From the NCBI GenBank assembly GCA_963674705.1, contig OY771506.1, forward strand, positions 4,096,001 through 4,160,000: 64,000 nt of DNA, written 5' to 3'. Every line of letters starts with the position of its first letter. Positions within the stretch are counted from its first letter, which is position 1. Positions 7,182 through 27,633 of the stretch are shown here, piece by piece. This stretch comes from Phycisphaeraceae bacterium. GTDB lineage: Bacteria; Planctomycetota; Phycisphaerae; Phycisphaerales; Phycisphaeraceae. The translations under genes were made by a program, and so were the position numbers. The notes beneath the pieces were generated by a model that worked only from the letters and a program-made list of their open reading frames with translations, searched no databases and had not been told where the DNA came from.

Positions 7182-7255
7182 GCCCACGTAGCTCAGCTGG
7201 ATAGAGCAGCGGACTTCTAATCCGCAGGTCACAGGTTCGAATCCTGTCGTGGGTA
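7182..7255 (+). tRNA. tRNA-Arg(TCT); integration target (attL)
   Basis: GCCCACG/CGTGGGT acceptor stem, anticodon arm gcgga-ctTCTaa-tccgc, GGTTCGAATCC T arm. Confidence 0.96.
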
Positions 7256-7262
7256 CATTCGC

Positions 7263-7297
7263 AAAACCACCCTAGCTTTCAAGCGGGGTGGTTTTTT
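7263..7297 (+). terminator. Terminator after tRNA-Arg
   Basis: aaaaccaccc...gggtggtttttt. Confidence 0.7.
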
Positions 7298-7389
7298 GTT
7301 GATTTGATAGGGGTTTACGACTCATTGAGTCGAGAAATGTGTCCAAGTTGATGCCCGTTTAATTGCATTGAGTTGCATGCGTTTGTGTG

Positions 7390-7425
7390 CTTGTTGCCGG
7401 AGCTACTACCGGGGCTGTAACCGGG
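7390..7425 (+). repeat. Putative integrase arm-type sites, left arm (3 x 12 bp)
   Basis: cttgttgccgga / gctactaccggg / gctgtaaccggg in tandem, ~135 bp inside attL. Confidence 0.7.
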
Positions 7426-8255
7426 ATCCATAAGATTGAATTCTACGATTGTTGTTTACATCTTCTTGTGTTAACAATACTTGAATCTGCCATTGACCAC
7501 CACATAAATTGTTCCTCTGTCAATATGAGGGGGGAGAGATTTACAGATTTTTCTTGACCGCATCAGCATTGTGTTCTAAAATCGAACAGCCGCCGGTGTC
7601 TAGTACTGTACAGGGACACTGGAAAACAGTCGATGCCTTGTTTAATTCATCAAATGTCAATTATGAAAGGAGATTACTAGCCAAATAGATAAATATGTTG
7701 TCAGGCGTTATCCGTGATTGGCCGACTCGATTTTGCACCCTTAGTTAATTTTCATGAATTCTCCCAGCCATCGCGGTTTTTCCAAGCCACAGTAATGATT
7801 CAAAGTATTAGCGTAAGTGTTTTAGAGTGCATACCGGGTGCGTATGCTCCTAGTTTAAAACTTGTGTTTGTAGAACAGTTAGGAATTATGTGGAGTGGCA
7901 AGTAGACTGTTTTTGTTTGATGTGGGCGTCCGCATGCACGGCACCGAACTCGGCTGATAATCCTAATTCTTGTATGAGGTGAATTTAAACCATAATTCGG
8001 CAATATTGCTATCCGAGTATTTCACTGAGATTCATACGTATATCTTCCGAAAGATCCTCGATAGATGCGGTTTGATGCGTATGAACAGTTATGTGTCCAA
8101 TCAGAAAGGAGGTATTACAGCTCGGATTTATCTAACACGGAGTGGTTCACCGATTATTCATCTCCAATCCGGAGTTTTGATGATCAGTGCGATTCGTCAG
8201 GGTGATTCAAGCATCATTCAATTAGGATAATAAAATGATGAATAACACTCTGTCC

Positions 8256-8385
8256 GCATGGCACCTCAGCGGAGTTTCGGCAGGCTCAAGTCAACGAGCA
8301 CTGCCGAAACCATGCACGCCATTTGGCGGGGCGGTGTTCGATAGTTGTACTTGAGCCGTTAGCCGCAACTATCGATGAGCACCGT
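8256..8385 (+). ncRNA. Candidate structured leader/antisense-type RNA
   Basis: Stems 8274-8283/8301-8310 and 8331-8347/8366-8385; alternative pairing 8283-8295 with 8344-8357. Confidence 0.5.
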
Positions 8386-8659
8386 TACTATGAACAATAT
8401 TATAGATCGTATAAATTTGGCTATTTGTGACATAGATAAAGTCTTGGTTAACCTTGACGAGGGTCTAGAAAAACAAACAATAATGAACCGTAGACACAAT
8501 CTGGTACGTTGCCGTGACAGATGTATCAAGGCGAAAGAATTGGTGCATAATATTGATAATTGTGATGTTCAATTTTCTACGTTGGGTCAAATGTATCGTG
8601 AAATCGCAGAACATTACGACAATGCGTATGCTTCATTAATCGCTTCGATGGAAATCTAG
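8375..8659 (+). CDS. Hypothetical helical protein (start may be 8390)
   Basis: 94-aa ORF co-oriented with the downstream HTH gene. Confidence 0.55.
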   Translation: MSTVTMNNIIDRINLAICDIDKVLVNLDEGLEKQTIMNRRHNLVRCRDRCIKAKELVHNIDNCDVQFSTLGQMYREIAEHYDNAYASLIASMEI

Positions 8660-8676
8660 GGTTCAATGGAAAGCTA

Positions 8677-8979
8677 ATGTGTCAAATGTGTGATGATCAA
8701 ATGGCAAAACTCGGTGTGCATTTGAGAAATAGAAGATGTCAGCTGGGTTTAAGCCAGGATGAGCTTTCGAAGCGCATCCAAAAACCGCGTACTGCTATCA
8801 GTAAAATTGAACAGGGACAGCAACGTATTAGTGTGGATGATTTTATTTCTTACTGTAAGGTATTAGATATATCGGCGCATACGGTACTAATTAATGTTCA
8901 ATTAGAAGCGATGTCATCCAAGTCAAACGAAGCGAAAGTTTTGAGAACTATTCGCAGACTTGCTGAAGAACTTGGTTAG
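8677..8979 (+). CDS. Xre-family HTH regulator
   Basis: LRNRR..LGLSQDELS...RTAISKIEQG. Confidence 0.85.
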   Translation: MCQMCDDQMAKLGVHLRNRRCQLGLSQDELSKRIQKPRTAISKIEQGQQRISVDDFISYCKVLDISAHTVLINVQLEAMSSKSNEAKVLRTIRRLAEELG

Positions 8980-9020
8980 ACGTTGCCCATGTGATGACTA
9001 GTTATGATGATAGAATGCAC

Positions 9021-9052
9021 AATACCCACTGAGCCTATGTTCAGTGGGTATT
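9021..9052. terminator. Bidirectional hairpin terminator between convergent HTH and integrase genes
   Basis: aatacccactga-N8-tcagtgggtatt perfect inverted repeat. Confidence 0.65.
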
Positions 9053-9088
9053 GTATATAGATTTAATACTCGATAATCATCTGATCAT

Positions 9089-10402
9089 TCAAGCATAAGA
9101 TAAAGATCGTGCCTGCTCAAGGTCAATTCCATTACTCCCAGTTGCCAATCTGGGTAGAGATTCTACTGCTCTCCGCGTTTGATCAAGATTCATGCGGTGG
9201 TAATGCTTCTGCAAGATGTCGGTACTACGGTGGCCTGTGATGCGAGTGGCCAAACTCGCTGACACGCCTGCTTGGTCCAGCCAGGTCGAACAAGTTGTCC
9301 GAAGTGCGTGAAAGTCAATGACTCGACCATCCCCATCCACATCAGCGAGAAAGTCCGACTCAGCACGCTTCGCTCGAATCTCCGAAGTTTCACCTTCATC
9401 TATCCATGCCTTCCGTGCTGCCGCCAAGTCCGTCCGAAGCATCTTTGCTGTCTCATAATCCTTCGGCATATTGAAAGCTGATGCGGCGAGTAGTTTTCCC
9501 ACGAATAGTCTGGCGAGTAGTTTTGCTGTCTCAGCCCTTATGGGTATGACGAGTTTCCGAGAGTTCTTGGTGTTGGCCTTGGCTTTGACCGTCACCGTGG
9601 GTAACTCCGACAGATCGAAGTCAATTACCTTAAGCCGCTCGATTGCACCACGCCGCAGCGCTGTTTCTAATGTCAACCTATAGAGCAGGGCACGCTCGAA
9701 ACCTGACATCTCCCAACGGATGTGCTCTGATGGTAGGTCCTGGCCACGGCTAACGAGCCACCTCCCAGTATTCGTCAACCCGCGTTGTGCTGGGCCGGCT
9801 TCGGCAGCCTCAATAAGGCGGGCTGCTTCTTCTGGGGTCAAGGCTCTCCGATATTCAGTCTCTACAACTGATAGACGTTCGACATAGGCGATTGGGTTAT
9901 GTGGGAGGCGACGCATCTTAGTCAGCCAGTTGGCAAAGGCCTTGATCGCAGTGAGATAATCATTTCGTGTCTGAGGGCTCAGGTTGTACTCATCTTTGAT
10001 TTCCCCCAAAGCTCGCTCAATAGTAGGAGGACGTAAGTCAGAAATGGTCGCGAGTTTGCCCACCTTGATGATTCTTTCTATGCGAACGACAAAGGTTTCG
10101 GCATGGCCAACGCTGCATCTACATCGCAAATGGCTGGCATATTCTTTGAAGTGATCATTAATCGGGCGTTTCCCCTCAGCCGCAAAGGCATCGAGTTCCG
10201 GATCAATTACACCTTCACGGCGAAGTGCTTCATCGGCAACAAATTTGGCTAGAATTCGCTCCGCAGTTCGTTTGTCCTTAGTCCGCGTTGACTTCTCTCG
10301 TCGTTTACCTCGATGGTCGTGCCATTGGGCGATCCAGGAACCGGTTCCCTGTCTACGATATATGCTTCCTTGTCCATTTCCTCGCTGTCGTTTTTTTGCC
10401 AT
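9089..10402 (-). CDS. Tyrosine recombinase/integrase
   Basis: N-terminal arm-binding RGNGQGSIY; catalytic R (TALRRG), HxxR (FHALR), GH and Y (KHYH); strong RBS. Confidence 0.93.
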   Translation of the reverse strand: MAKKRQRGNGQGSIYRRQGTGSWIAQWHDHRGKRREKSTRTKDKRTAERILAKFVADEALRREGVIDPELDAFAAEGKRPINDHFKEYASHLRCRCSVGHAETFVVRIERIIKVGKLATISDLRPPTIERALGEIKDEYNLSPQTRNDYLTAIKAFANWLTKMRRLPHNPIAYVERLSVVETEYRRALTPEEAARLIEAAEAGPAQRGLTNTGRWLVSRGQDLPSEHIRWEMSGFERALLYRLTLETALRRGAIERLKVIDFDLSELPTVTVKAKANTKNSRKLVIPIRAETAKLLARLFVGKLLAASAFNMPKDYETAKMLRTDLAAARKAWIDEGETSEIRAKRAESDFLADVDGDGRVIDFHALRTTCSTWLDQAGVSASLATRITGHRSTDILQKHYHRMNLDQTRRAVESLPRLATGSNGIDLEQARSLSYA

Positions 10403-10553
10403 CTATTCTCCTTTCATTTCTTATGTTAGGGTCGTGTTCGTATATTATTGTAGATATATTGCTATGGATATAAACCAAATAATGTCCTAATTATTTAAAT
10501 TCAGATGGTTTATTGTGTTGGCGAGAACTGAAATATTTTGTTAACGTAAAGAA

Positions 10554-10896
10554 ATGAGCGACCGGGAAGATACTGAATATCCGCCGAAGCGGGTACTAGA
10601 TTACAGGCAATACATACGGCAAGTTGATTTCAGAGAGAACATTTCAAATTATGTTGGCTGGGTGTTCATTATCCTTGCCACAGCGTTACCTTTATGGTTT
10701 GTTTACTTAAGTGTTGACGCAATTGCTGGTAAAGAAACGACTTTTGACGTTAAGATCGGAGCTGCGTTTGGGTTTTACTGTTGGAGGCTCGGGATTTACC
10801 GCATTGATAGCTTGGTTCAAAAACCGAAGTCAGAAACGAGAATTGAAACGACTACGTATAAGATGTACTGATTTGGAAAAAAAACTTGGGCTATAA
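10554..10896 (+). pseudogene. Two-TM membrane protein split by a +1 frameshift near 10767-10776 (or sequencing error)
   Basis: Frame 1 ...KIGAAF continues naturally in frame 2 as GFTVGGSGFTALIAWFKNRSQKRELKRLR... across tttgggtttt. Confidence 0.55.
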
Positions 10897-10920
10897 TATT
10901 AGTGGAAGGGGGCGATCAAT

Positions 10921-11499
10921 ATGAACGAATTCTTAGTAGTTGCGATATCAATTGTTTCGGCTTGGCTTGGATTATTTGTTATTACACCAAAGCTGTTCTG
11001 CAGTATCTCACGGCACACGTTGTGGAGGCTAAGAGATAAAATTGCTGATGCAATTATTGGGGAGGAAATTTCCAAGTCTCGAGCCGCATATCGTTTGCTT
11101 GATCGGGTAGAAACGCTCATCCTTCATGCGGATAAGTTAAAAGTGGGCACATTACTTTTTATGCCTGAACCTCCAAAACAATGGATAAAGGAAAGAGAAG
11201 CTCAAGATAAGAAATTTGTCAAGGAGCTTACTGATGGAGATGCAGATCAATTAAAGAAGTTTGAAGCAGAATTCCATATGCTCATGGCAACACATATGCT
11301 TGCCACAAGCCCATTTGGGTGGTTCATATTGATAACTACAATATTAGTAATCATACCAGTAGCGATTATTTGGCGCAGTTGTAGCGAAGCAATTCAATGG
11401 GCTCAATCCGAATTGCAAGGCTTAACGAGTAATAGATTTGATGTGGCGCTAGAAAAGCTTGGGGCTCATGGTAATCATGGTCTTGAGTCATGCAACTAA
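10921..11499 (+). CDS. Hypothetical membrane protein (N- and C-terminal TM segments)
   Basis: 192-aa ORF, G-rich RBS, two hydrophobic segments. Confidence 0.7.
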   Translation: MNEFLVVAISIVSAWLGLFVITPKLFCSISRHTLWRLRDKIADAIIGEEISKSRAAYRLLDRVETLILHADKLKVGTLLFMPEPPKQWIKEREAQDKKFVKELTDGDADQLKKFEAEFHMLMATHMLATSPFGWFILITTILVIIPVAIIWRSCSEAIQWAQSELQGLTSNRFDVALEKLGAHGNHGLESCN

Positions 11500-11629
11500 A
11501 GCAGGATGAGCACATTTTATGGTTGTTGGTACCCTACCCGCTTTATTACTCATATCAGGCTAGGTTTCACCAATGGTTATACTATGCCCCTAGTATCTAT
11601 CGTCGGTAATCTGGGCAGTAAATATGGAT

Positions 11630-11866
11630 TCAGCGCCGCTTCTTCTTCATCTGCACTTGAGGCAGCAGGTCTTCCGGCTGTGCTTCAAGAGCCCGACAAA
11701 GGTCCTCTAGGGTGTTCAATCGAACAACCCGTCCCGCACGCTCAATCAGACTGATATGTGTCCGGTGCAATCCTGCCGCATCCGCCAAATCTTCTTGAGA
11801 CATACCCTTGGCCTCCCGGGCCTGACGGACATTCTCACCAAACTCTCTGATAAACCGGGTGCTCAT
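11630..11866 (-). CDS. Xre HTH resembling restriction-modification controller (C) proteins
   Basis: FGENVRQAREAKGMSQEDLADAAGLHRTHISLIER closely follows the C-protein consensus. Confidence 0.8.
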   Translation of the reverse strand: MSTRFIREFGENVRQAREAKGMSQEDLADAAGLHRTHISLIERAGRVVRLNTLEDLCRALEAQPEDLLPQVQMKKKRR

Positions 11867-11887
11867 TGGTTAAAGAGCATCCGGGTT

Positions 11888-11925
11888 TGTAGACGATACG
11901 GCTACAGACAATGCGCAAAGTCTGT
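11888..11925 (-). promoter_or_regulatory. C-box-like operator
   Basis: Minus strand ACAGACTTTGCGCATTGTCTGTAGCCGTATCGTCTACA: two overlapping inverted repeats just upstream of the C-like gene. Confidence 0.55.
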
Positions 11926-11939
11926 CAAGGAATCGTCAA

Positions 11940-12509
11940 ATGGAATCAGAAGAATCAACCCAACTTGCTATCTACCGCAGGCAGCCGGTCGAACCAGCCG
12001 ATTTCGTCAATTTCTGGGCGGGGCAATACCATGACCCACGGGAGGATTTGTATGAAAACAACATTGGCCGGCCACTGACCCCCGAGAAGGTCAGACAGTT
12101 GTACTTATGGAAGGCGGGTGGGGCGTACAGGTCGAAGCAGCAGAAAGACACCGTCGAAACTAATTTCGTAGGGAGGTTGGATGAACTTGATCGCTTGTCA
12201 GACTCCATGACGCCTGGAGAATTCCTGTCCCGGTTCGACGGGGGCGGGGCGATCTGGCGAATCTTCTGGTTGCATTGCTGGAAGCCAGATGTGTATCCAA
12301 TCTTTGACCAGCATGTATGGCGGGCCCGTTGGTTCTTTGAGCATGGGTCGATTGATGAACTCGGAACCTACTCTGATAAGAAGAAGGTGTCTCTATATCT
12401 GAATTCTTATTTGACGTGGTGTACTTTGTTCGTGAATATGGATCAACGACAAGTAGATCGCTCATTGTGGGCTTGTGGAAAGTTTCTCAAGTCTTGGCTG
12501 CTGATGTAA
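11940..12509 (+). CDS. Hypothetical protein, HhH-GPD/DNA-glycosylase-like
   Basis: LWK..., GGGAIWRIFWLH..KPDVYPIFDQHVWRA and VDRSLW motifs. Confidence 0.6.
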   Translation: MESEESTQLAIYRRQPVEPADFVNFWAGQYHDPREDLYENNIGRPLTPEKVRQLYLWKAGGAYRSKQQKDTVETNFVGRLDELDRLSDSMTPGEFLSRFDGGGAIWRIFWLHCWKPDVYPIFDQHVWRARWFFEHGSIDELGTYSDKKKVSLYLNSYLTWCTLFVNMDQRQVDRSLWACGKFLKSWLLM

Positions 12510-12584
12510 GGTGATTCATGATCAATGGCAGCATGATTCAGCCCGAATTTACTATATCGAATTAATCAGATAGTAATTGAAATA

Positions 12585-13643
12585 CTATGTCGGTTTGCGT
12601 CCCGTTATTTGCTCATACTTGATGGGGTCTGAGAAGGTGACTTTAAGTTTGTCAATCCATGCCTGTGTATACAAATAGTCCTTATGCGGTGAATCGTACA
12701 CACAGTATTTTGATACTGTCTGCTCAGGTTTCTTTGATCCATATATCGGCCTGACCTTGAAATATTTCCACGCATCTGTATGTGTATTCATTGTAAATCG
12801 GTGAGGTATAGCCTCATTAACCTTCGGTACTACTTTCCCCGCCTTGTAGAGGTTTAGGTTAGCAATTGGAATATGTTTTTCCTTTATCAGAACATTGAGT
12901 CGTTCAAGACGCTTTAACTCTTCTTCGCTTTTCTCATCTACACGAAAGAACTCAACTGCCACATCAGCCGCGTTTTCTCGATTAGCAACTTTTGGAACCA
13001 AGAATACACTGAAAGAATATTTCATACTGGACAGTACTGCGCTAGGCAGATTCCCTCGAAATTTCTCAATGTAGTCGGATACCTTCTTAGCACTAGTTGT
13101 GGCAAGTGTTTGAGCTGCTTTTCGCTTTTCGGATGGGGTTGATCTACTGAATTGTAGTGATACTGCAAGTTGATCAAGCAAAGCATACTTCTGGCCGAAT
13201 TCTTGTACTAAAAGATCTTCAAGGTTTTGCAAAGCAGCTTGGCATTCCCCATACAGAGAAGCGTCTAATTCTGGTAGATGTCTGTGCTCGATCTTATTTC
13301 TTAAACCAATTAGGAATTCAAGGTTTTTTCGCTCAGCAGGATTATTACTGCCATAGTATTCATTAATACACTTGGATAGATCCCAATGCTTTGGATCACC
13401 GTCGATCTTCTCATATCGTATAGCGTTCCCTGAACCAGAACTGCGCCTCCGGTACCAAGGACGTTTACCAGTTTTATAGAAGATAGCATGAAATAATGCA
13501 GTCCATGCAATCACAATGAGAACCAGATACTGGGCTGTCCTAAACCTCTTGCCAGGTTTATTATAGACTTCAACCGCAGCTAAAGCCGCTTCTGTGCATT
13601 TCTCGACATTATCCTTGACCCTTTGAGGTAGTTTCTTGGACAT
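12585..13643 (-). CDS. DUF3644-type HEPN-domain protein (putative RNase)
   Basis: AALAAVEVYNKP...IAWT N-terminus and RxxxxH motif RNKIEH. Confidence 0.75.
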   Translation of the reverse strand: MSKKLPQRVKDNVEKCTEAALAAVEVYNKPGKRFRTAQYLVLIVIAWTALFHAIFYKTGKRPWYRRRSSGSGNAIRYEKIDGDPKHWDLSKCINEYYGSNNPAERKNLEFLIGLRNKIEHRHLPELDASLYGECQAALQNLEDLLVQEFGQKYALLDQLAVSLQFSRSTPSEKRKAAQTLATTSAKKVSDYIEKFRGNLPSAVLSSMKYSFSVFLVPKVANRENAADVAVEFFRVDEKSEEELKRLERLNVLIKEKHIPIANLNLYKAGKVVPKVNEAIPHRFTMNTHTDAWKYFKVRPIYGSKKPEQTVSKYCVYDSPHKDYLYTQAWIDKLKVTFSDPIKYEQITGRKPT

Positions 13644-13889
13644 GCTAATCCCCTAAATGTATAGACCATGAATTTGATATGACCCGGCACAGGATAGACG
13701 GGATCTATGAATAGATAATATCATGGTCAGAGACGGGCGTCATGGTTGTGCTTTATTCAAGCTAGTCACTTGCCCGACATCTATTCACTTGTCAAAGAAC
13801 TGCTTTCTCAGCCACAGTGGATCATAATTCCGCTGCCATTCACACTAAACACAAGTTCTGTCTAGGTTTAAGCCAACAACAACATCTTC

Positions 13890-13913
13890 CCCGGTTACAC
13901 TCCCGGCAGTAAC
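13890..13913 (-). repeat. Internal inverted pair of arm-type-like 12-mers
   Basis: Minus strand gttactgccggg-agtgtaaccggg, same motif as the element ends. Confidence 0.6.
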
Positions 13914-13934
13914 CGCGGTTCGATACCTCTCCCT

Positions 13935-15554
13935 CTAGCGAGGGGTGTTCGTCTGTGGGTGTGTAGATACTGAGGATGAATCTGTGACTGTGCCTATAAG
14001 TATCAAGGTGAGAGCTTGGTTTGCTTCACCGGGGATGTCTTCATCCGAGAGGTTGATTGTGTAGATGGTTCTGAATTCGCCTGCTCTGCTCGTGTCGAAG
14101 CGAGCAACGTAGTTCTTTGATGTGCCGGGTGAAAGACCTTTGAAGGTTGTTAAATCCGCAGACAGTACGGCGCTATCGCCCGAGCTAGTAATTGAATCAA
14201 GATCAAGATTGGCAGTGAATCCCGGTGTCTGTACGAGATTACAGATGTCAAACCCGATGTTGATTGCATCGCCGGATGGCACCGCACCAAAGTCTATGGT
14301 CAAGGTGTCCTTCTTGAACTGGGGGGAGAAAGATGCCACGGCATGGTCTAGAACCGTGAGACTAACCGTTATGACATCATTAGCATCTTCAGCACCATGG
14401 CCTTCACCGCTTGAAGTAGGATCAATATTGTCAATCGTGATCGTCCCGCTTCTTGCTCCCGCCTCTGTGGCTTCGGTGCTGAGTCCAGCAAGTAGCAGGT
14501 ATTTTTGTGGCCCCTCACTGAATGCATTGAATCGACCTGTGATGTTTGAATTCGCGACCCCGTCTGTAATGATGGCGAAGTAGGTTGGATTGTTACCCGT
14601 CTTCATGATCTCAATTGGCTGTGATGGTGGGACCGCCGCAACTGTGATGATTCTTCCAAGATCAACCTGTATCGTTGAACCGCCATCAGGTTTGGTTTGA
14701 CCAGCAACGGCGATCTGACTGTCGTTGTTACCTCCACCGTAGACTGCCCAAACATATTCAGGATGATCGATGTAAGCATTCCGGTTATTTTGATAGTACG
14801 ATGGATTTAGTTTTGAACTGTAGATCGTGTGATTGCGGCGTCGTTCAAAACAGTCTGGCGGGTCTTCATAATTCCACCGGATAAGTGTGTGTATGTCTCC
14901 CACCACACCCCGTGAGATATCCTCAAGTGTAGAGTCATAGCGTGTATCTGAGTAAAACAGTGATCTTGCGATATCGCCAATACGGACATCGCCCGGATAC
15001 CATGTTCCGCCAACTTGGATGCCAAATTCCCCCGATGATCCAAGATTACCGAAAAGTTTGCTGCCTCGTTCTTTGTTGGTAGCTGTGTCTGAGGGAAAAA
15101 GAGAAAATGCATCACCAAGATTACCAATCGTATCATTGAAAGCACTGCCTGGCTGCAATATCTCAGGCCAAACATGCTCACGGTTCCATGTATGGCCATT
15201 GTCCCAGCCATATTTAATAGAGGTCCGACTGTAAAGTAGGAGGATGTTACCGGGATTACTGGGGTCAGCATCAGATAAAGCACAGAAGAATCGGAAATCG
15301 CCATATTCCCTTTGGATATGGTCATCGCCCCCGCCAGGCACTCCATCTGGACCATAGGCCATTATCGAACTGAGATGCTTCTTAAGTGTTGCACCTTGGC
15401 CAGTAGCAATATCGTAATAGCCTGCCGGGGCATCATATTTTTCCGCTTGGCTCACTACTGATGAGAAATGAGTCAACAGGAATGATGTCATGAGGTAAGG
15501 CAATACTCGATTGCGATGATGTAATACATTGTTGTGCATCTTCAATTTCTCCAC
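13935..15554 (-). CDS. Secreted endonuclease I-family nuclease with C-terminal Ig-like domains
   Basis: Signal-like N-terminus, PAGYY, WNREHVWP, GDIARSLFY, ERRRNH...QNNRNAYIDHPE. Confidence 0.85.
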   Translation of the reverse strand: MEKLKMHNNVLHHRNRVLPYLMTSFLLTHFSSVVSQAEKYDAPAGYYDIATGQGATLKKHLSSIMAYGPDGVPGGGDDHIQREYGDFRFFCALSDADPSNPGNILLLYSRTSIKYGWDNGHTWNREHVWPEILQPGSAFNDTIGNLGDAFSLFPSDTATNKERGSKLFGNLGSSGEFGIQVGGTWYPGDVRIGDIARSLFYSDTRYDSTLEDISRGVVGDIHTLIRWNYEDPPDCFERRRNHTIYSSKLNPSYYQNNRNAYIDHPEYVWAVYGGGNNDSQIAVAGQTKPDGGSTIQVDLGRIITVAAVPPSQPIEIMKTGNNPTYFAIITDGVANSNITGRFNAFSEGPQKYLLLAGLSTEATEAGARSGTITIDNIDPTSSGEGHGAEDANDVITVSLTVLDHAVASFSPQFKKDTLTIDFGAVPSGDAINIGFDICNLVQTPGFTANLDLDSITSSGDSAVLSADLTTFKGLSPGTSKNYVARFDTSRAGEFRTIYTINLSDEDIPGEANQALTLILIGTVTDSSSVSTHPQTNTPR

Positions 15555-16178
15555 TTAGGTTTGTTCCTGGTCAATGATGTCGAGGTAGGGGGGTTCGTTT
15601 TGCAGATCCGGGTATTTGTGAAGGATGGCAAGCCCGATGTTGATGGCGACGTCTATGCGGCGGTCTTGCCGTGACTGTCGCAACTGTGATGTCAGAGCAG
15701 AAAGTTGCCGAACAAGTCGCCCATGATGACGGTCTGCCTTCTCTAAAGCATGAATGTCTGGCAGATAGGCCCGTTCTTCCCAATACTCGGGACGAGCATC
15801 CATCTCGCCACGCTCCATCTCACGGAACGCACGTCGGTTGGCTGCTTCATGGGCCTGCTTGGTTGTGTTGCGGCGGTATGCACTAACACGCTTCATCAGC
15901 CACATGACCTCTCCAATCTCCTCCACGATTTGATGCTCAAACCCATCCTGCGGATTGAAGTGTTCGACCACACCAGCAAGGTGCGTATTCCAGGCTTCGG
16001 GTGTCTCACCGAGGTGTGAAAGAATGATCTCCTTACTATCCAATCCATGACGGACAGCGTTCTTGGAACTGATCGCCTTACCTTCGGGGGTAATGGCGCC
16101 GGTAGGTAGCTGGGGGCCATCGTCTTCCTCTAGGTCAATACTGGCCGCGATTTCTGGATTGATTTTGACTCGTTTCAT
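15555..16178 (-). CDS. Element protein with GxxTxEGKxxSxxNAxRHG motif (possible small-terminase/packaging-related)
   Basis: GAITPEGKAISSKNAVRHGL; AGGAGA RBS before ATG 16178. Confidence 0.6.
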   Translation of the reverse strand: MKRVKINPEIAASIDLEEDDGPQLPTGAITPEGKAISSKNAVRHGLDSKEIILSHLGETPEAWNTHLAGVVEHFNPQDGFEHQIVEEIGEVMWLMKRVSAYRRNTTKQAHEAANRRAFREMERGEMDARPEYWEERAYLPDIHALEKADRHHGRLVRQLSALTSQLRQSRQDRRIDVAINIGLAILHKYPDLQNEPPYLDIIDQEQT

Positions 16179-16193
16179 GATGCGTCTCCTAAA

Positions 16194-16223
16194 CCCACGC
16201 CAGTCTGTTAAGACTGGCGTGGG
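16194..16223 (-). terminator. Perfect 13-bp hairpin (terminator/attenuator)
   Basis: cccacgccagtct-gtta-agactggcgtggg immediately upstream of the next RBS. Confidence 0.5.
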
Positions 16224-16326
16224 GACTAGTGTGACTTGCGAGCTTGCGTGCTGTGAGGTTTGTCGATCAGACGGGGTTGATGCCGTGCTGGTCCAACAAA
16301 CCGTCTCAGACGCTAAGCTCGCTGGT

Positions 16327-17133
16327 TCAAGCCAGTGGTGCAGGCGATGCGAGGCCATGCAGCGTCAGAGCCGTCTTCAGATCGGGAGCATTTTGGGGAA
16401 GCTCGCCGATCAGTACGTTTAGCTCGCTGATCGCGCTGATAACAGCGGGTTCACCCTGTTCATCTTCTGCCCACCGGGTGCTGATGTGCATTTGGCGTGC
16501 TGCGATAATCAGGTTGAACTTCGCCGTGTCGAGATAGCTAGCCGCACTTCGTAGGTTCTTGAAGACCTCAGGTTGCTGAGATTCTCGCCACAATGCTGTA
16601 GCATTCCTAATGTCTTCGGCGCTGAACATCGACTCTTGAACAACCAGTGGCAAATTGTGGTAGGCCCTGATTATCGACGGATCGCCACTACCAGCAGCAG
16701 CAAGCAGAAGATCACGGCGAATGCGGTATGCAGTTTCGGCATCCTTGTCATGGGTGGCCTGATCCAATAATCCAGCAATTGCGGAGTGCTGGAAGTAGCG
16801 ATTCATGACAGCGGGAACTTCAAGCGACACCGGGGGCAGGGGGGCGGTTGCTTTCGACACACCATCCTTTGTGTGATGCTTGACGAACCGAACCTCGGAC
16901 TGGCTAAGGTCGAGGAATTGCGGATAGGCCTTGTCCTCAATCGCCTGCCGAGCCTCTGCTTGTGCAGCGGGCCTGAACCGAGAGTTAACGTGATCTCTCT
17001 CGGCTACCACGCGGCTGACCATCGCGTCAAGTGCTTTGTTCAGATCGTCGATTCGCCGGTCATACTGGGGAGAGGCGTCGCCTTGAATGAAGCCCAGACG
17101 GTGAGCTTCGACTAAATTTGGTAGTGCGGACAT
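16327..17133 (-). CDS. Hypothetical helical protein of the element
   Basis: 268-aa ORF with AAGGA RBS. Confidence 0.7.
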   Translation of the reverse strand: MSALPNLVEAHRLGFIQGDASPQYDRRIDDLNKALDAMVSRVVAERDHVNSRFRPAAQAEARQAIEDKAYPQFLDLSQSEVRFVKHHTKDGVSKATAPLPPVSLEVPAVMNRYFQHSAIAGLLDQATHDKDAETAYRIRRDLLLAAAGSGDPSIIRAYHNLPLVVQESMFSAEDIRNATALWRESQQPEVFKNLRSAASYLDTAKFNLIIAARQMHISTRWAEDEQGEPAVISAISELNVLIGELPQNAPDLKTALTLHGLASPAPLA

Positions 17134-17176
17134 AGTTTTCCTTTCAAGTTAAATATGCGCTCTATGCGCAAGGTTA

Positions 17177-18022
17177 TTAATCATCGAATACTCGAACCCG
17201 CTTGCTCTTTTTCTTTCTCTTCTTCTTGTTTCTGAGCTGTTTTGCCTTTGCTAGAGCCCATTCTGGATCTTTTAGCGCCTTCCCAGCGATACCACCTAGA
17301 GAGTCGTCGAAGTCACGACGCTCCTTCCGATACTCAAGCCAACGCAGTATCTTTCTGGCAGCAGCGACACCGTGCTCTTCGCAAATGGCGGCCAATTGCC
17401 TGCGAGCCCAACTTCGTTTTGTGACCCCGAATGAATAGGCCCGTGAGGCCAACTCATCCAAGGTTGAATCAGATGGGTTGTAATCACCAAGGCGTTCTAC
17501 GAATTCATCGTCGGAGATCTCTCCAGTCTCAGAATCGATTCCAGACCGTACACCACTACCATCACAAAAAAAAGATTTATCTTTATGGTTATATGAATCT
17601 GTTCTTGATGATGTTCGGTCCCGACCTGGCGGGATATGTGCGCCCGGCTCAGCGGGATATGCCACCCGGCTACGCGGGATATCCCGCTTGGGACGCCCAT
17701 GTTTATTCGGGGGCGGGATTTTAAGTTTTCGACGGGTAGATCGGCCAGGTCCACCAGGCTCGATCACAACAAAGTCACCTACTTCACGTAAGGACTTTAA
17801 TGATTCTGAAACTGTTGACCGCGATACACCAGCATACTCAGAGATCTTGGATACAGACGGGTAGGCAATCCCATCGTGCCAATCAATACAGAACAGCAGT
17901 ACGAGCCAAACCTTGGCCGCTGAACCACTGGTGTGTCTGAGCCTTTCTTTTACGAACTCCGCTAAAATATCGTAAAGAAGAAATCTTTTTGTTGTTTCAT
18001 TCTTGTTGGGCGTATATGACAT
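17177..18022 (-). CDS. Phage-type replication initiator (N-terminal winged HTH)
   Basis: KVWLVL...AYPSVSKISEYAGVSRSTVSESLKSL; internal iterons and AT tract. Confidence 0.7.
   Translation of the reverse strand: MSYTPNKNETTKRFLLYDILAEFVKERLRHTSGSAAKVWLVLLFCIDWHDGIAYPSVSKISEYAGVSRSTVSESLKSLREVGDFVVIEPGGPGRSTRRKLKIPPPNKHGRPKRDIPRSRVAYPAEPGAHIPPGRDRTSSRTDSYNHKDKSFFCDGSGVRSGIDSETGEISDDEFVERLGDYNPSDSTLDELASRAYSFGVTKRSWARRQLAAICEEHGVAAARKILRWLEYRKERRDFDDSLGGIAGKALKDPEWALAKAKQLRNKKKRKKKSKRVRVFDD
17565..17686. promoter_or_regulatory. Putative replication origin inside rep
   Basis: GCGGGATAT at 17629, 17652 and 17674 (23/22-bp spacing) next to an AT-rich tract at ~17565-17610. Confidence 0.6.
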
Positions 18023-18076
18023 TATTGCGTCCTTGTTTGCCCGGGCGGACGGCGCCAACTATCCGCCCGGGCATTT

Positions 18077-18391
18077 TTAATTGTTGATGTTCCAGTTAAT
18101 GAATCCGTAGCGAGCAGCACGATTCCCTACGGCGGGTTCGATTCGCTTTAAAATCTCATAGTCACTCAATTCAAATAGACCTTTCTGTACACTTTCGAGA
18201 GTCAACCCGGTGAGTTGACGAAGCCTCTCTAACGACGCGGTGAACTCGCCTGTGGCATGATCAACAAGACCCAATCCAACGAGGTAGACCTTTAGGCCCC
18301 CTTTACTAAATCGAGGCAATGGCTGACCGTGTAGATAGGCTTGTTGTTTCTTGGTATCCCTGTGTGGTTTCAATTTAGCTGATGTTGGCAT
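18077..18391 (-). CDS. Small winged-HTH protein
   Basis: LKVYLV...TASLERLRQLTGLTLESVQKGLFEL. Confidence 0.65.
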   Translation of the reverse strand: MPTSAKLKPHRDTKKQQAYLHGQPLPRFSKGGLKVYLVGLGLVDHATGEFTASLERLRQLTGLTLESVQKGLFELSDYEILKRIEPAVGNRAARYGFINWNINN

Positions 18392-18402
18392 TGGTAAGTT
18401 TC

Positions 18403-18618
18403 CTAGATGCAATTCCCAAGGTTGTTTGTGAGCCAATCCTCTAATTCTCTTACGGGTAGAAGGACACGACGCCCGACCCGCACGGTCGGAATGCCAGAGT
18501 CACGACTTGCGATGATTTCGTTGAGCTTTCTTGGAGAGAGACCTAGGCTCTCGGCTGCCTCGGTTGGTGACAATGCCAATCGCTTGATTTGCTCATTTGA
18601 TTGGGCCTCCGTTCTCAT
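18403..18618 (-). CDS. Excisionase-like HTH (HTH_17)
   Basis: LSPTEAAESLGLS...IPTVRVGRRVLLPVRELEDWL. Confidence 0.85.
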   Translation of the reverse strand: MRTEAQSNEQIKRLALSPTEAAESLGLSPRKLNEIIASRDSGIPTVRVGRRVLLPVRELEDWLTNNLGNCI

Positions 18619-18878
18619 ACTCCACCTCCCCCTCCCGCAGCACGGCGCTCAGCGTCTGCTAGCTGATCTGCAAAAGCTAGAATCCACTCAGCGGTTGTGT
18701 GGATACGACGACCAATACGAACTGATTTGAGAAATATCCGTTGGCCATCAGCGGCCATAAATCCAGTCTTTGTCCAAGCAACAACAGTTTGTGGATGCAC
18801 CGAATTGGGCAAAAGAGTGACAGCCTCATTGATAGATATCAATCGGGCTAGAACGTCATTTGCGGGTTGTGCTGTCAT
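18615..18878 (-). CDS. DUF1580-type HTH protein
   Basis: LISINEAVTLLP..VHPQTVVAWTKTG...LKSVRIGRRIHTTAEWILAF. Confidence 0.75.
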   Translation of the reverse strand: MTAQPANDVLARLISINEAVTLLPNSVHPQTVVAWTKTGFMAADGQRIFLKSVRIGRRIHTTAEWILAFADQLADAERRAAGGGGGV

Positions 18879-18899
18879 ATCATCGCGTCCTGCCAATAG

Positions 18900-18934
18900 A
18901 AAAAACGACGTAATCAAAAAGATTGATTACGTCG
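18900..18934 (-). terminator. Intrinsic terminator in the leader of the xis/rep operon
   Basis: Perfect 12-bp stem cgacgtaatcaa/ttgattacgtcg followed by T6 on the minus strand, ~22 nt before ATG 18878. Confidence 0.7.
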
Positions 18935-18963
18935 CGTTTAGGCAGTAGCGCGATTATCACTTC

Positions 18964-19060
18964 CTTGCATGCGGTGTTTTGATCACCGATCGCAACGGAC
19001 GACTCCGCCGACGGCCTCACATGCAAGTGAGAGACGACTCATTCACTCTTTCATGAGTCG
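18964..19060 (-). ncRNA. Candidate multi-stem leader RNA (CI/C4-like)
   Basis: Closing stem 18964-18971/19020-19027 with internal hairpins; hairpin 19035-19060; TTGACA upstream at 19100-19105 (minus strand). Confidence 0.5.
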
Positions 19061-19260
19061 GATTAATTGTGAATATATTTAAACACAAACTATGATCGAT
19101 GTCAAATAAGCATTGCCAGTTCTGTATAACCTGAATGAAACACGGCATTATCATAGACAGACAGATACACCGTAGAAAATAAGCGTAATCAATCTAACAT
19201 TTCTACAAACATACAGCGAGGCCATCAGCAATATAGCACTGGGTTGTATTTGATTGTATG

Positions 19261-19284
19261 CTTACTGCCGGGGCTACTGCCGGT
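19261..19284 (+). repeat. Putative arm-type sites, right arm (2 x 12 bp)
   Basis: cttactgccggg / gctactgccggt, ~58 bp inside attR. Confidence 0.7.
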
Positions 19285-19342
19285 GCGGGCATCATTACTC
19301 ACATAACCGAACGTGTAATATATGGTTGTCCAAACAGGTCGT

Positions 19343-19387
19343 GGACTTCTAATCCGCAGGTCACAGGTTCGAATCCTGTCGTGGGTA
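19343..19387 (+). repeat. attR: 45-bp copy of the tRNA-Arg 3' part
   Basis: Identical to 7211-7255. Confidence 0.95.
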
Positions 19388-21818: not shown

Positions 21819-22148
21819 TTATATTACCTCTCCGCATTCTGGGCACTCTAGTCGTGTTAAACCTTTGAGAACGTATCCGCACTTTCGGCAGTGGCACTCG
21901 TTGTGAATCTTCTTCCGAAGAGCTTGACCAATCAACAAAGAAACGACACAACCCACGGCAACCGGCGGAACACAATAACGTGACAGGCTATCAACCAACA
22001 TCCATAAAGAACTCAAGTTGTTGTAGCTAAGTGTCCCAACCGAATACCAGATAATGATATACGCAAGCAAAAACGCCAAAATACCCGATAACACGGCCAC
22101 GATGAATCTAATGGCTGCCCATGTGGTGTGTTGCATGTTTTTATCCAT
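21819..22148 (-). CDS. Membrane protein with C-terminal CxxCGY..CPECG Zn ribbon
   Basis: Two TM segments then CRKCGYVLKGLTRLECPECGEVI. Confidence 0.75.
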   Translation of the reverse strand: MDKNMQHTTWAAIRFIVAVLSGILAFLLAYIIIWYSVGTLSYNNLSSLWMLVDSLSRYCVPPVAVGCVVSLLIGQALRKKIHNECHCRKCGYVLKGLTRLECPECGEVI

Positions 22149-22180
22149 TGAGTTTCATTATCGACTTCAAAGGTTGAGCT

Positions 22181-22651
22181 TTATACCTTCTCCCCACACT
22201 CAGGACAGGCAGCCGATCCCTTGCTGCCGCGCAGGTCGTAGCCGCAGGCGGAACAACATCCGGCCGGATGCATCCCGGGCCGCCAGCGAAACAAAACAAC
22301 CAACGGCCAGGCGTATAGCAGCAGCATCGGCAGCCATAGCGGGATGACATAAACGTAAGCTCCTCCGATATCGACGATCCGAGGCAACCCAAATATCTCC
22401 TCGACCCGTTTGTCACTGCGAGATAGGCGTGTAATCCATAACCCATCCATTCTCTTATGGGGGTCATCTAAGTGAATGAATGCAATATTTGCACGCCCGT
22501 CACCTACCTCTAACTCAAAGCCCGGGTGGTAATAGTGCGTTTTCCAAAAAGGCGAAGTCAACCAACCGGCGTTGACCAAGACCGCCAGCATCAGCACAAA
22601 TATCAGCGCCCCCCGATACACCCACCCATGTTTATCGCGCAACCGACTCAT
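22181..22651 (-). CDS. Membrane protein with C-terminal Zn ribbon
   Basis: Two TM segments then CSACGYDLRGSKGSAACPECGEKV. Confidence 0.78.
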   Translation of the reverse strand: MSRLRDKHGWVYRGALIFVLMLAVLVNAGWLTSPFWKTHYYHPGFELEVGDGRANIAFIHLDDPHKRMDGLWITRLSRSDKRVEEIFGLPRIVDIGGAYVYVIPLWLPMLLLYAWPLVVLFRWRPGMHPAGCCSACGYDLRGSKGSAACPECGEKV

Positions 22652-22719
22652 GACGCTTAATCATCATGGAGACTGCATGTAGAGTCAACATGTCAGCAAG
22701 TAGCATGGGTTGCCGTCCT

Positions 22720-22938
22720 GTAGGGTGGCGTTAAGCGAAGCGCAACCCACCACGGTGAAGTCGTGGCAGACGAATACAGATTCGCCTCGATCGTACGGGA
22801 CGTGTGAAGCTGGTTATTGAATTGTCGTGAGAGAACAACAAAGTAGAATTATAGCGGCACGCTTGGCCGGCAATGAATGGCCTTGTGTAATTGGATGTGC
22901 ATCTGCGGTGGGCTGCGCTTCGCTTAACCGCACCCTAT
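22720..22938. repeat. Inverted pair of GTAG-type REP sequences (REPIN-like)
   Basis: 22720-22751 gtagggtggcgttaagcgaagcgcaacccacc and its near reverse complement at 22907-22938. Confidence 0.75.
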
Positions 22939-22990
22939 GCCGGAGTGGGAACCCATGCTACTTGCTGCAATCAAATCAAGACCCCAGAGT

Positions 22991-23419
22991 CTACCCCTCG
23001 GCACCACCCACCGATTTCTCTGTGATAGCCTCCCCGCACTCCGGGCAGGTGGCCGATTCCTTGCTGCCGCGCAGGTCGTAGTTGCAGGCGGGGCAGTGGC
23101 CAGGGGGAGGCCAACGTCCCGGCCAGAAACGATACGCGATGTAAAACGGGCCGACAATTGGAAAGATCGCAAGCAGAGCCCATAGGACAGCGCCCCGTCT
23201 TGATAACGTAAAGCCGATGCCCCCAACGATTGCGGTGATGGTGCCGACGATCATCGACCAGAAACTGAAGCGGATGATGGCGAACTCTGATGCATGATGG
23301 ACAGAACTGCCCACATGACTCGCAAATACCACGACTACCGTGCTCGTGGCCATTAAGATCAACCACAAGACTGTCCCGGTGGACCAATCAGATTCGGATT
23401 GCTTGTGCTCCCGGCTCAT
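22991..23419 (-). CDS. Membrane protein with C-terminal Zn ribbon
   Basis: Three TM segments then CPACNYDLRGSKESATCPECGEAI. Confidence 0.78.
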   Translation of the reverse strand: MSREHKQSESDWSTGTVLWLILMATSTVVVVFASHVGSSVHHASEFAIIRFSFWSMIVGTITAIVGGIGFTLSRRGAVLWALLAIFPIVGPFYIAYRFWPGRWPPPGHCPACNYDLRGSKESATCPECGEAITEKSVGGAEG

Positions 23420-23720: not shown

Positions 23721-24368
23721 TCAATGCTTCCGCCGACTCAACACACAACCCGCAATCACCGCAAAAACCATAACCGACGCAGGCTCGGGGACGGAACTTG
23801 CCGGGCCGAGGGCGAAGGTGGTCAGGTGGGTGGTTTTGCAGACGACCATCGGTTCGCCTGCGGGGCTTATGCCCGTGGTGCATGTTTCATCTTCGATACG
23901 CCAGACGGAGGGATCAACGCTTTCATCCAGGTAGCCCAGCGCCGCGTTGGCGATGTCGTCGGCGGTCAGGCCGGGGATGACGAAGCCGATCGAGATGCCA
24001 TTGGGGAAGTCGGTGATCGGTTCGTTGGTTGCGATGTCAAACAGTTTGATATCGAATTCGTAGGCGTTGAACGGCTCAGCGATCCCATCATCTAAGAGCA
24101 CATCCATCGCAAGTTCAAAGCGGACGGGTTGGCCCGAGAAGAAGTCGCCGGGGTTGAACACTATCGTCTTCGGCTCGTAAAGCGGGTTCTCGCCTGAGTT
24201 GGTGTTTTCTTCATAGAGCGGATTGGACACGCTCATGGGCTCGTCGATCAATTCATCCCACTCGGCAAGAAGCAGGTCCGGCCGTTTGCGGATCCTGGCG
24301 TCTGCTGAGGATACCGCGACACCCAGAAACAATAAGCACAACGCGTACACGAACGTGCGATAGAACAT
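23721..24368 (-). CDS. PEP-CTERM protein with tandem NPLY and GPS/GAIN-like motif
   Basis: Signal peptide, SNPLYEENTNSGENPLYE, W....C...C.TTHLTTFAL, VPEP-TM-RRKH. Confidence 0.82.
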   Translation of the reverse strand: MFYRTFVYALCLLFLGVAVSSADARIRKRPDLLLAEWDELIDEPMSVSNPLYEENTNSGENPLYEPKTIVFNPGDFFSGQPVRFELAMDVLLDDGIAEPFNAYEFDIKLFDIATNEPITDFPNGISIGFVIPGLTADDIANAALGYLDESVDPSVWRIEDETCTTGISPAGEPMVVCKTTHLTTFALGPASSVPEPASVMVFAVIAGCVLSRRKH

Positions 24369-24535
24369 GGACTTTCTCCCTATCAAACTGGATATGACTT
24401 CCGCCCTATACGCCGGCTAACGAGCCAGCTTCGATAACTACTATACAGATTTATACTTCAGCATCAAAGAAAAAAAACAGAGACCGGTAAGACCGATCTC
24501 TGTAAGCAAGTTGATTTGAGTTTGCCTGATCCAAT

Positions 24536-25165
24536 TCACGCACGGCGACGCAGCAATGCTAAACCGCCGAGTCCGAGCAGAGCCATCGAGGCAGGCTCGG
24601 GAATGACCGAAGCGTCGTCGAGATAGACGTTCTGATTGAGAGCGCCGCCGAAGCTCTGGATCGCGTAGACGACACGTGCGGTATCCGCGCCGGCCGGGAC
24701 GTTATCCGTCAGCGTGATGAGGGTGTATTCACTGGTCAGTGACGGGACGAGGTTTGGCGTACGAGAGATCTCCGTATTGCTGACCGAGTCGCGCCATTCG
24801 ATACGCATCTCCGAACCACCGCTATCCAGACCGACGTTCTTGGCCCAGACGGAGAAAGTGATCTCTTCACCTTCTGACAGACCTTCCACATCCTGGAACG
24901 CGCCGGCGAAGTTGTTCGCCTGATTATCGATCACCAGTTCCAGGTGCTGTGCGCCGCTAAGGGGCATCACCGTGCTGTTGAACGATGCAGCAGTCCCGCC
25001 GCCGCTGAACGCTTCCCAGAAGCCGACGAACGGCGGGCCGTCATACGTCACCGGGTCTTCAAAACCGGCGTTCGACAACAGGTTCGCTTGCACAACGGAA
25101 CCCGAAACCGCAACGACTAAAGCCGAAGCTAGCATTTTCAAATGAGGTACTTTTAATCGCATCAT
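24536..25165 (-). CDS. PEP-CTERM protein (CBM4/9-like jelly roll)
   Basis: GGAGG RBS, signal peptide, NLLSNAGFE, YLDDAS, IPEP-TM-RRR. Confidence 0.85.
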   Translation of the reverse strand: MMRLKVPHLKMLASALVVAVSGSVVQANLLSNAGFEDPVTYDGPPFVGFWEAFSGGGTAASFNSTVMPLSGAQHLELVIDNQANNFAGAFQDVEGLSEGEEITFSVWAKNVGLDSGGSEMRIEWRDSVSNTEISRTPNLVPSLTSEYTLITLTDNVPAGADTARVVYAIQSFGGALNQNVYLDDASVIPEPASMALLGLGGLALLRRRA

Positions 25166-25440
25166 TTCTGCCCTCCAAGCAAATGTGAAAATCAATCACT
25201 CTATGGATTCAACCAAGCATGCGTACAAAGATATGCACACGCTCCTTTATTATCCGAGACGACATCTCTTAGTCAATAGTTATCCGCCATGTAACGAAAT
25301 TACATTTAGACCGATTGCGATACACAGAATCGCTTCTGCATGTGCATCGCGTCTCCTTCTTGCGGCACCTGCTGTCCAATCCGTCAACAACGGACGTATT
25401 AATCTGTTAATCAACATCCTGCGGAAATTGTTTACTCAGC

Positions 25441-26883: not shown

Positions 26884-27633
26884 TTACACGCTGTTGTTCA
26901 CCGCACTATTCAATAGCACCCGAGGCCGTTCGATCGTCATCTGATCGACGACTTGCTGCCCGAACTCATCAACGACCATTTGCAAACCATCCAATCGGCT
27001 GGATAGATCACTCGGGCGATGCATGTCGATCGCCATGATCCAGTACCGGCCTTCCTGCAGGAACTGTCGCACCCGCTGGTCAGGCAGGTAACCATCCTCA
27101 CCGGTCATGCACCGGAAGTTGCCTTGCAGCAGCACACCGCGCGCGGTGACTTCATCCAGATGTTTTTCCAGATCCTTCTGCATCCCGATGCGCTCCGGGT
27201 GCGCGAGGATGGGTTTGTAGCCCTCACTCATCAGCCAGTCGAACGTCTTGTCCGCGTACTTCGGCCAATGGTCTTCCCAGAAGTCAGTCAACACATACTT
27301 CGTGTCCCCCAGTGTCTGCACGCCCACCGCCTTCAGCCAGTCGATGCACTTATCAAACAGCCGAAGCTCACCGCCCGGCCAAAGCCTGTAATCGATCCCC
27401 TCATCAGCCAGGTTCTTTGACAACGTCTGGACCCACAATTTCACATTGGCGGGCGTATTGTCCGGAAACAGCTCCGGCAACATGTGCGGCGTGCAGATCG
27501 TGCCGGCGTACCCGATCTTCTTGAGCATCTGGATACTGGCAATCGACTCGCCGACATCCACGCAGCCATCATCCACGCCCGGGATCATGTGGCTGTGAAT
27601 ATCGATTCGTCCGGTAGGGGGGATGGGGGGCAT
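26884..27633 (-). CDS. CpsB/CapC-family PHP tyrosine phosphatase
   Basis: IDIHSH..PGVDDG, TPH, AHPER, DMH. Confidence 0.88.
   Translation of the reverse strand: MPPIPPTGRIDIHSHMIPGVDDGCVDVGESIASIQMLKKIGYAGTICTPHMLPELFPDNTPANVKLWVQTLSKNLADEGIDYRLWPGGELRLFDKCIDWLKAVGVQTLGDTKYVLTDFWEDHWPKYADKTFDWLMSEGYKPILAHPERIGMQKDLEKHLDEVTARGVLLQGNFRCMTGEDGYLPDQRVRQFLQEGRYWIMAIDMHRPSDLSSRLDGLQMVVDEFGQQVVDQMTIERPRVLLNSAVNNSV

Follow-up and report, generated by a model that had tools for sequence, protein, structure and literature searches.

The gene P0001 encodes what is likely an exosortase-anchored surface protein, in which a ZU5/GAIN-like domain is predicted to self-cleave at L182|T183 and afterwards to hang on the cell by one clipped-in strand, and whose N-terminus would be a copy of an amoebozoan-type integrin-beta tail, likely displayed as bait toward amoeboid protists. 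Taken as a whole this reading is tentative, a little short of an even chance. The gene was located in a 64,000-nucleotide stretch of contig OY771506.1 from a Phycisphaeraceae bacterium (hereafter the window), and its features are listed in Table 1. Sequence and profile comparison established which parts the protein has, how far they are conserved, and that they are akin to single-pass GPS receptors and integrin-beta-like tails. It is likely that protists grazing on the bacterium or hosting it are the source of pieces that it displays and sheds.

Table 1. Features of P0001 and its surroundings in the window.
Feature	Position	Strand	Basis or remark
P0001, whole gene, 215 aa	23721..24368	-	reading frame also intact in the contigs of three further runs
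Predicted Sec signal peptide, residues 1-24, ending A-D-A	24297..24368	-	by inspection; relatives carry A-x-A at the same place
Putative integrin-beta-type cytoplasmic-tail copy, residues 25-66	24171..24296	-	Integrin_b_cyt match below cut-off; tails of P0083 and P0132
First NPLY, residues 49-52	24213..24224	-	invariant in alignment A1
Second NPLY, residues 61-64, 12 residues past the first	24177..24188	-	invariant in alignment A1
ZU5/GAIN-subdomain-B-like beta-sandwich, residues 67-189	23802..24170	-	models, fold searches, HHalign to TM-GPS receptors
GPS motif, residues 143-189 (LGYLDE..W..C..C..HLTTF)	23802..23942	-	Pfam GPS match below cut-off; identity to receptor P0009
Predicted autoproteolysis triad H181-L182|T183	23820..23828	-	H[LF][TS] in 33/35; seven GAIN/FIIND alignments ending at 182
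PEP-CTERM sorting signal, residues 192-215	23724..23795	-	TIGR02595 match; three exosortase genes in genome
Sigma-70-like promoter match, 9/12	24440..24467	-	upstream of P0001; consensus match only

All motifs quoted in the initial annotation were recovered in the P0001 ORF, namely a hydrophobic N-terminus (signal peptide) ending in S-A-D-A (residues 1-24), RIRKRPDLL (25-33), W37, the NPLY pair, YLDE (146-149), W156, C163 and C177, then H181-L182-T183-T-F-A-L, VPEP (193-196), a hydrophobic helix and RRKH. The PEP anchor, said to follow immediately, is present; it does not directly adjoin the GPS-like site and begins 11 residues past the cut. Pfam and NCBIfam scans of the whole protein matched PEP-CTERM as the sole family, with 16.3 bits for TIGR02595 (cut-off 16) and 20.2 for PF07589, just under its cut-off of 20.7. 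The exosortase genes were detected as PF09721 matches over the cut-off. Judging by PEP-CTERM biology, P0001 would very probably be exported by Sec and anchored by an exosortase.

Among the 380 PEP-CTERM-like ORFs of this genome, counted by a regular expression, an NPLY pair was expected 1.4e-4 times and H[LF][TS]xF shortly before PEP 0.11 times, and each was observed once, in P0001. The frame was intact in the contigs of three other runs (two samples), where substitutions spared NPLY and HLT, and a 98%-identical copy was detected in Phycisphaeraceae bacterium. GC and GC3 of the tail segment were the same as in the remainder of the gene. Four promoter-like matches were found versus 1.4 +/- 1.4 in shuffles (consensus match only); the promoter match of P0001 follows closely on a terminator-like hairpin (24477-24503) that belongs to the PEP-CTERM gene upstream, and further PEP-CTERM genes are among the neighbours. 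No RNA holder of P0001 was listed.

A word-indexed search with P0001 retrieved four relatives with 45-53% identity. A profile search of 1.84 billion representatives yielded 161 matches at E<=0.001, the best 150 of which were examined. Alignment A2 comprised P0001, the four relatives and 30 PEP-CTERM-type matches picked by eye (35 in total, a few truncated), the members being 22-50% identical to P0001. The H[LF][TS] triad was kept in 33 of the 35, in agreement with the earlier suggestion of a GPS-like cleavage site. The NPxY pair, which had been expected to be conserved in homologues, was kept in only 19 members; three had a single motif and 13 none. The RIRKRPDLL helix was present in 5/35, and tyrosine-kinase snippets were rarer still (HRD[IL]A in 3/35, DFG in 1/35). 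The only PEP-CTERM subfamily matched across the 35 members was NF038129, in two of them (E<=1e-5), and no named subfamily fits the family. In this P0001 differs from the described PEP-CTERM/exosortase system (PMC1569441, as far as its account extends), with which it shares the signal peptide, PEP motif, TM helix and basic end, together with exosortases in the genome.

The family is sparse, since no second full-length member was found in 301 genomes of the class searched with P0001, where one tail-only match (G116) appeared, or in 401 genomes of the phylum, where the tail matched G116 only and the core gave two weak matches. The genome of P0001 itself contained no second member. The genome search with the A2 profile covered the best 7 candidates per genome, which were dominated by PEP tails. 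No relative of A1 or A3 was found in viral contigs and no match in plasmids; P0001, A1 and the tail, searched against PDB sequences, gave nothing usable. In the ESM Atlas all matches of P0001 were under 0.82, and the P0083 tail had none.

Model 2 of P0001, built from 35 sequences, had a mean pLDDT of 85.6, mostly >90 over residues 68-189. In the structure search with model 1, 14 of the 21 chains at Z>=5 were GAIN, ZU5 or FIIND entries, the best GAIN match reaching Z 7.0 (rmsd 4.5 over 145 residues). The ZU5/GAIN-type matches of the two models lay at a middling Z of 5-7, all below 8; scores as high as those of GAIN went to axonemal chains and GH66 sandwiches, and the top VIA values (Z 7.5-8.0) belonged to unnamed axonemal chains, within the tool's range for a common arrangement. 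Foldseek returned the BAI3 GAIN domain as the best match of model 1 (E 3.6e-3) and a dextranase as the top match of the better model, and no match at E<=0.001 for either. The register is more telling than these fold scores. In both VIA searches seven GAIN/FIIND chains (5kvm, 6v55, 7qu8, 8hc0, 8vti, 6x6c, 7crv) stopped aligning at model residue 182, which is the Leu of HL|T in P0001. These alignment ends are presumably the known scissile residues, the chains being N-terminal products of cleavage.

The sequence evidence for GPS kinship is also stronger than the fold scores. The only Pfam match of the segment 143-189 was GPS (PF01825, E 0.05, below cut-off), and against receptor P0009 this segment showed 37% identity over 57 residues in P0001 and 58% in the relative P0006. 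GPS followed by a hydrophobic helix was found in 68 proteins among the matches listed (P0009, P0061-P0158), and the closest non-family relatives of P0001 among the matches listed were such single-pass GPS receptors. Family A2 aligned to profile A3, made from 39 of the 68, with an HHalign value of 99.8% (E 4.5e-29, 90 columns), and the best PDB match of A3 was latrophilin-3 (ADGRL3, E 0.015), with HLTNFAVL in register. Together with the matches at Z 5-7 and the seven chains ending at 182, these alignments support the GPS/GAIN-like fold and register proposed in the initial annotation. The 68 TM-GPS proteins form a large, unnamed family of single-pass receptors in their own right, with mucin-like or Cys-rich ectodomains and short tails.

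A eukaryote label was found for one of the 14 TM-GPS receptors looked up, from the amoebozoan Clastostelium recurvatum; from their architecture, we infer a eukaryotic origin for the remaining, unlabelled ones. A quick tree placed the PEP clade nested among the TM receptors, and a careful, unrooted tree (59 of 143 segments, 89 columns) contained one PEP clade (96/82) beside the amoebozoan P0145. The careful tree, having no root, shows no direction of transfer, and no donor is claimed. A third group without an anchor (P0017, P0019, P0021 and others, L017, L018) consisted of 2-6 tandem ZU5-GPS repeats, each ending in an HF|TNFAILL-like motif. Anchorless GPS proteins also occurred in bacteria, in 4 of 301 genomes from the phylum of a Polyangiaceae genome, three of them with the full GPS motif.

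A GAIN domain consists of a six-helix subdomain A and a 13-strand subdomain B, about 320 residues altogether, and latrophilin cleavage needs subdomain A. Two conserved GPS disulphides define GAIN in the account given by PMC3321182. In P0001, H-L|T/S lies at the turn before the last strand; the core spans ~125 residues with no helical subdomain in either model, and C163 and C177 are the only Cys in the domain. With subdomain A missing and no more than two Cys, P0001 does not count as a GAIN member, though it likely works like one. Compared with the GAIN/GPS of adhesion GPCRs and PKD proteins (PF01825; PMC3321182, within the structures described there), it appears to have the same beta-sandwich topology and shares the W...C...H-L|T-x-F register and the position just before the membrane anchor, but is shorter (~125 versus ~320 residues), has no helical subdomain A and two Cys instead of four, and carries a bacterial PEP-CTERM anchor instead of a 7TM receptor.

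Given the GAIN mechanism of H-L-T self-cleavage (described in PMC3321182) and the conserved triad, a His-assisted attack by Thr183 would probably cleave the L-T bond. We consider it very unlikely that the domain merely keeps its fold as a plain, stable scaffold without cleaving: the lack of subdomain A and a Cys pattern that is reduced and shifted one residue relative to the family would agree with this, as would the GAIN domain of BAI3, reported as crystallised uncleaved (PMC3321182), but 33 of the 35 divergent members retain both His and Thr/Ser. The initial annotation had supposed that cleavage releases a peptide. A cut at L182|T183 would instead split a 158-residue ectodomain from an 11-residue stub, and the halves of GAIN domains are described as staying bound after cleavage (PMC3321182). 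Since the cut strand stays clipped in, the predicted cut would make a latch and free no peptide. Possibly, and with slightly less than even likelihood, the halves would remain together until the anchored strand is displaced, be it by force, by unfolding or by a competing strand, whereupon the 158-residue ectodomain would be shed with its tail.

The segment forming that tail (residues 25-66) consists of the basic RIRKR run, an acidic helix with W37 and the two NPLY motifs; model 2 placed a helix at residues 34-41. Its only Pfam match was Integrin_b_cyt (PF08725, E 0.048, below cut-off). The 12-residue distance of the NPLY pair is the integrin spacing, and the pair aligns without offset to PF08725 positions 28-44. 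Among 34 tail copies the second NP came 12 residues on in 13 and 11 in 4, and 15 had none. In a type I receptor the tail is cytoplasmic and directly behind a TM helix; in P0001 it follows the predicted signal peptide. The proteins P0083 and P0132 have DxCGxCGG stalk repeats and a GxxxG-bearing TM helix, after which the tail segment makes up the whole cytoplasmic C-terminus. This type of stalk pattern is that of amoebozoan type I integrin beta as presented in bioRxiv 2020.04.29.069435, and by sequence both proteins resemble amoebozoan-integrin-beta-like receptors. Neither has a taxon label, the NPxY Tyr is absent from their tails (NPLA/NPLQ, NPLA/NPLL), and a Cys pattern similar to their stalk was also seen in a viral protein. 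In P0083 and P0132 the segment comes directly after the TM helix, so RIRKR can be read as a stop-transfer run; in several other tail copies the end of a TM helix, its final hydrophobic turns, is still present ahead of RIRKR. No further full-length integrin-like holder of the tail was found, the search giving two non-receptor proteins only.

The integrin-tail likeness is thus stronger than had been claimed, the whole segment lying behind a membrane helix in both proteins, and amoebozoan type I integrin beta is a closer model than the Sib proteins first named (Sib being compared by its published description). With amoebozoan type I integrin beta (bioRxiv 2020.04.29.069435) and Dictyostelium SibA (PMC9197732, PMC12686525), in the features those sources describe, P0001 shares a charged membrane-proximal segment followed by NPxY motifs. 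It differs in that its tail is N-terminal, is exported and lies on the membrane's outer face, and in having neither a vWA head nor a stalk, nor a TM helix ahead of the tail. SibA has two NPxY motifs, the proximal one being reported as required for talin binding (PMC9197732, PMC12686525). Because SibA binds talin through this motif, binding of the P0001 tail to a talin-type FERM/PTB domain in vitro is plausible, with an even chance in our estimate. Talin is cytosolic, and no route was found that would deliver the tail to it; for these reasons we consider it unlikely that the tail has a real role in encounters with grazers or host cells, such as might come once the bacterium is engulfed.

The tail segment was also found as an insert in 27 proteins outside the family, which fall into 19 unrelated clusters; several of these proteins match tyrosine kinase, Hcp, eCIS-core, phage-baseplate OB, VgrG-type or EF-Tu profiles or motifs in short fragments. 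Its presence beside bacterial Hcp, VgrG-type, eCIS-core and EF-Tu fragments would fit an ordinary microbial self-cleaving (ZU5-type) surface module, in which the tail, once captured, would serve the structure or a bacterial partner and have no eukaryotic target. Such domains are described as widespread in bacterial surface proteins (PMC3482391), and residues 45-48 formed a strand in both models. We nevertheless find this account rather doubtful. The W-to-NP distance was 14 in 22 of 34 tail copies and 12 in 4; that helix, Trp and NP spacing are held this tightly across unrelated scaffolds suggests a specific binding partner. Moreover, tail, GPS and kinase loops are three separate parts of the family that resemble eukaryotic signalling or adhesion proteins.

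A wider reading is that surface proteins of scattered bacteria are assembled, like collages, from short amoeboid-protist adhesion and signalling peptides (integrin tail, GPS stub, tyrosine-kinase loops) and from bacterial injection-system pieces, and that the PEP-CTERM family mounts them on a self-cleaving latch and sheds or polymerises them by strand exchange, as a decoy against grazers or hosts. We hold this to be rather unlikely. In a genome of the same family, G116 (L004:1345-1974) encodes a 209-aa PEP-CTERM protein combining the NPLY pair with tyrosine-kinase fragments (PK_Tyr_Ser-Thr in Pfam, E 1.2e-13, in two pieces). In a blind count of shared peptides, nine six-mers occurred in >=3 of the 19 clusters, versus control medians of 4 (95th percentile 21) and 65. 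Because this count did not exceed the controls, the collage is an observation from Pfam fragment matches and inspection, not a tested enrichment, and the motif list was drawn up after inspecting the sequences.

The patchwork proteins vary in size. P0050 and P0060, each ~5,000 residues long, combine the tail with kinase loops and fragments resembling Hcp; P0050 (Planctomycetales bacterium, 5053 residues) bears the NCBI label 'type VI secretion system tube protein Hcp'. Large lipoprotein-like sequences (P0008, P0010, P0013, P0014, P0162, L006:4485-7598, L007:2271-5300) contain the tail helix and other short fragments in unrelated scaffolds.

Most family members display another element where P0001 has its tail. 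In 24 of the 35 (25 regex matches, one doubtful one dropped) the predicted mature chain opens, right at the A-x-A site, with T/S-x-F-[ASG]-[VI]-L. This TNFAILL-like strand corresponds to the one that lies after the cut in the TM receptors, where F stands at +3 and L at +6 in 68/68, and it often brings along the Gly-rich linker and Cys that come next. The last strand of the members themselves has drifted from this form, and the P0001 clade has the integrin helix in place of the N-terminal strand. Since the N-terminal strand copies the post-cleavage strand and the members' own last strand has drifted, the arrangement suggests strand exchange in the family; in cis this might lead to release, and in trans to a fibre. 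When relative P0018, cut at the GPS site, was predicted as a two-copy complex, the score was 0.03, which is no evidence either way.

Read as a donor-strand system, self-cleavage would loosen the anchored last strand, and the TNFAILL-like N-terminal strand made by signal peptidase would fill the groove in the same molecule, giving a clean release, or in the next one, giving a fibre, with P0001 as a cap or stand-alone member. The 24 members with a spare strand agree with this, and the tandem ZU5-GPS proteins offer a parallel, each repeat starting with the post-cleavage strand of the preceding one. However, P0001 has no such strand and its genome no second member, nor was a PEP-CTERM donor-strand precedent found in the literature searched; the reading seems improbable.

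The preferred reading, a latch carrying an integrin-type tail, has precedents for some of its parts. ZU5-superfamily domains in bacterial surface proteins were proposed to self-process (Zhang et al. 2012, PMC3482391), and the presumed self-cleaving part of P0001 is thus of an already known kind. As these domains are presented there, the likeness lies in a self-cleaving-type module beside a C-terminal sorting signal, proposed for shedding; unlike them, the P0001 family has no enzyme cargo, its GPS is nearest to single-pass eukaryote-type receptors, and its N-terminus carries an integrin-type tail or a duplicated post-cleavage strand. Symbiont eukaryotic-like proteins, such as the ankyrin-repeat proteins altering amoebal phagocytosis (cited in PMC11706023), are comparable, so far as that source describes them, in using eukaryote-type parts proposed to act on phagocytes. 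P0001 differs from them in having short linear motifs and a predicted self-cleaving latch instead of repeat domains.

In a literature search that covered few subscription papers, no paper was found on the P0001 family, the RIRKRPD segment or bacterial NPLY-tail mimicry, and a captured integrin-type tail, a duplicated post-cleavage strand or a closeness to amoebozoan-type GPS receptors was not found described. If it cleaves, the ~125-residue domain would be a minimal bacterial model of a GPS latch resembling that of single-pass, eukaryote-type receptors, and strand exchange could be tested directly in the relatives with their own spare strand. Should the tail bind talin, bacteria would be imitating that part of a protist adhesion receptor which faces the cytosol, a mimicry not found described. 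The shared insert points to an undescribed set of patchwork proteins, including the 5053-residue protein annotated as Hcp.

Several other features were noted in the window. An integrative element (7211-19387) is located at tRNA-Arg (7182-7256) with a 45-base perfect duplication at 19343-19387. It has low GC and encodes a tyrosine integrase (9089-10402), a DUF3644 protein, an endonuclease I-like secreted protein and an HTH protein, and it is missing from the same site in L005. P0001 lies outside 7211-19387, and its being cargo of this element was ruled out. Three small membrane proteins (21819-23419) carry a C-terminal CxxCGY-L-G..CPECG-like zinc-ribbon motif, which was found in 35 ORFs genome-wide; this stretch is rearranged in L005. 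The upstream PEP-CTERM gene (24536-25195) keeps its anchor and has a different body in run X6, apparently in L005 too, as if cargo had been swapped. A CpsB/CapC-type phosphatase gene (26884-27633) is located just upstream of a three-gene PEP-CTERM run.
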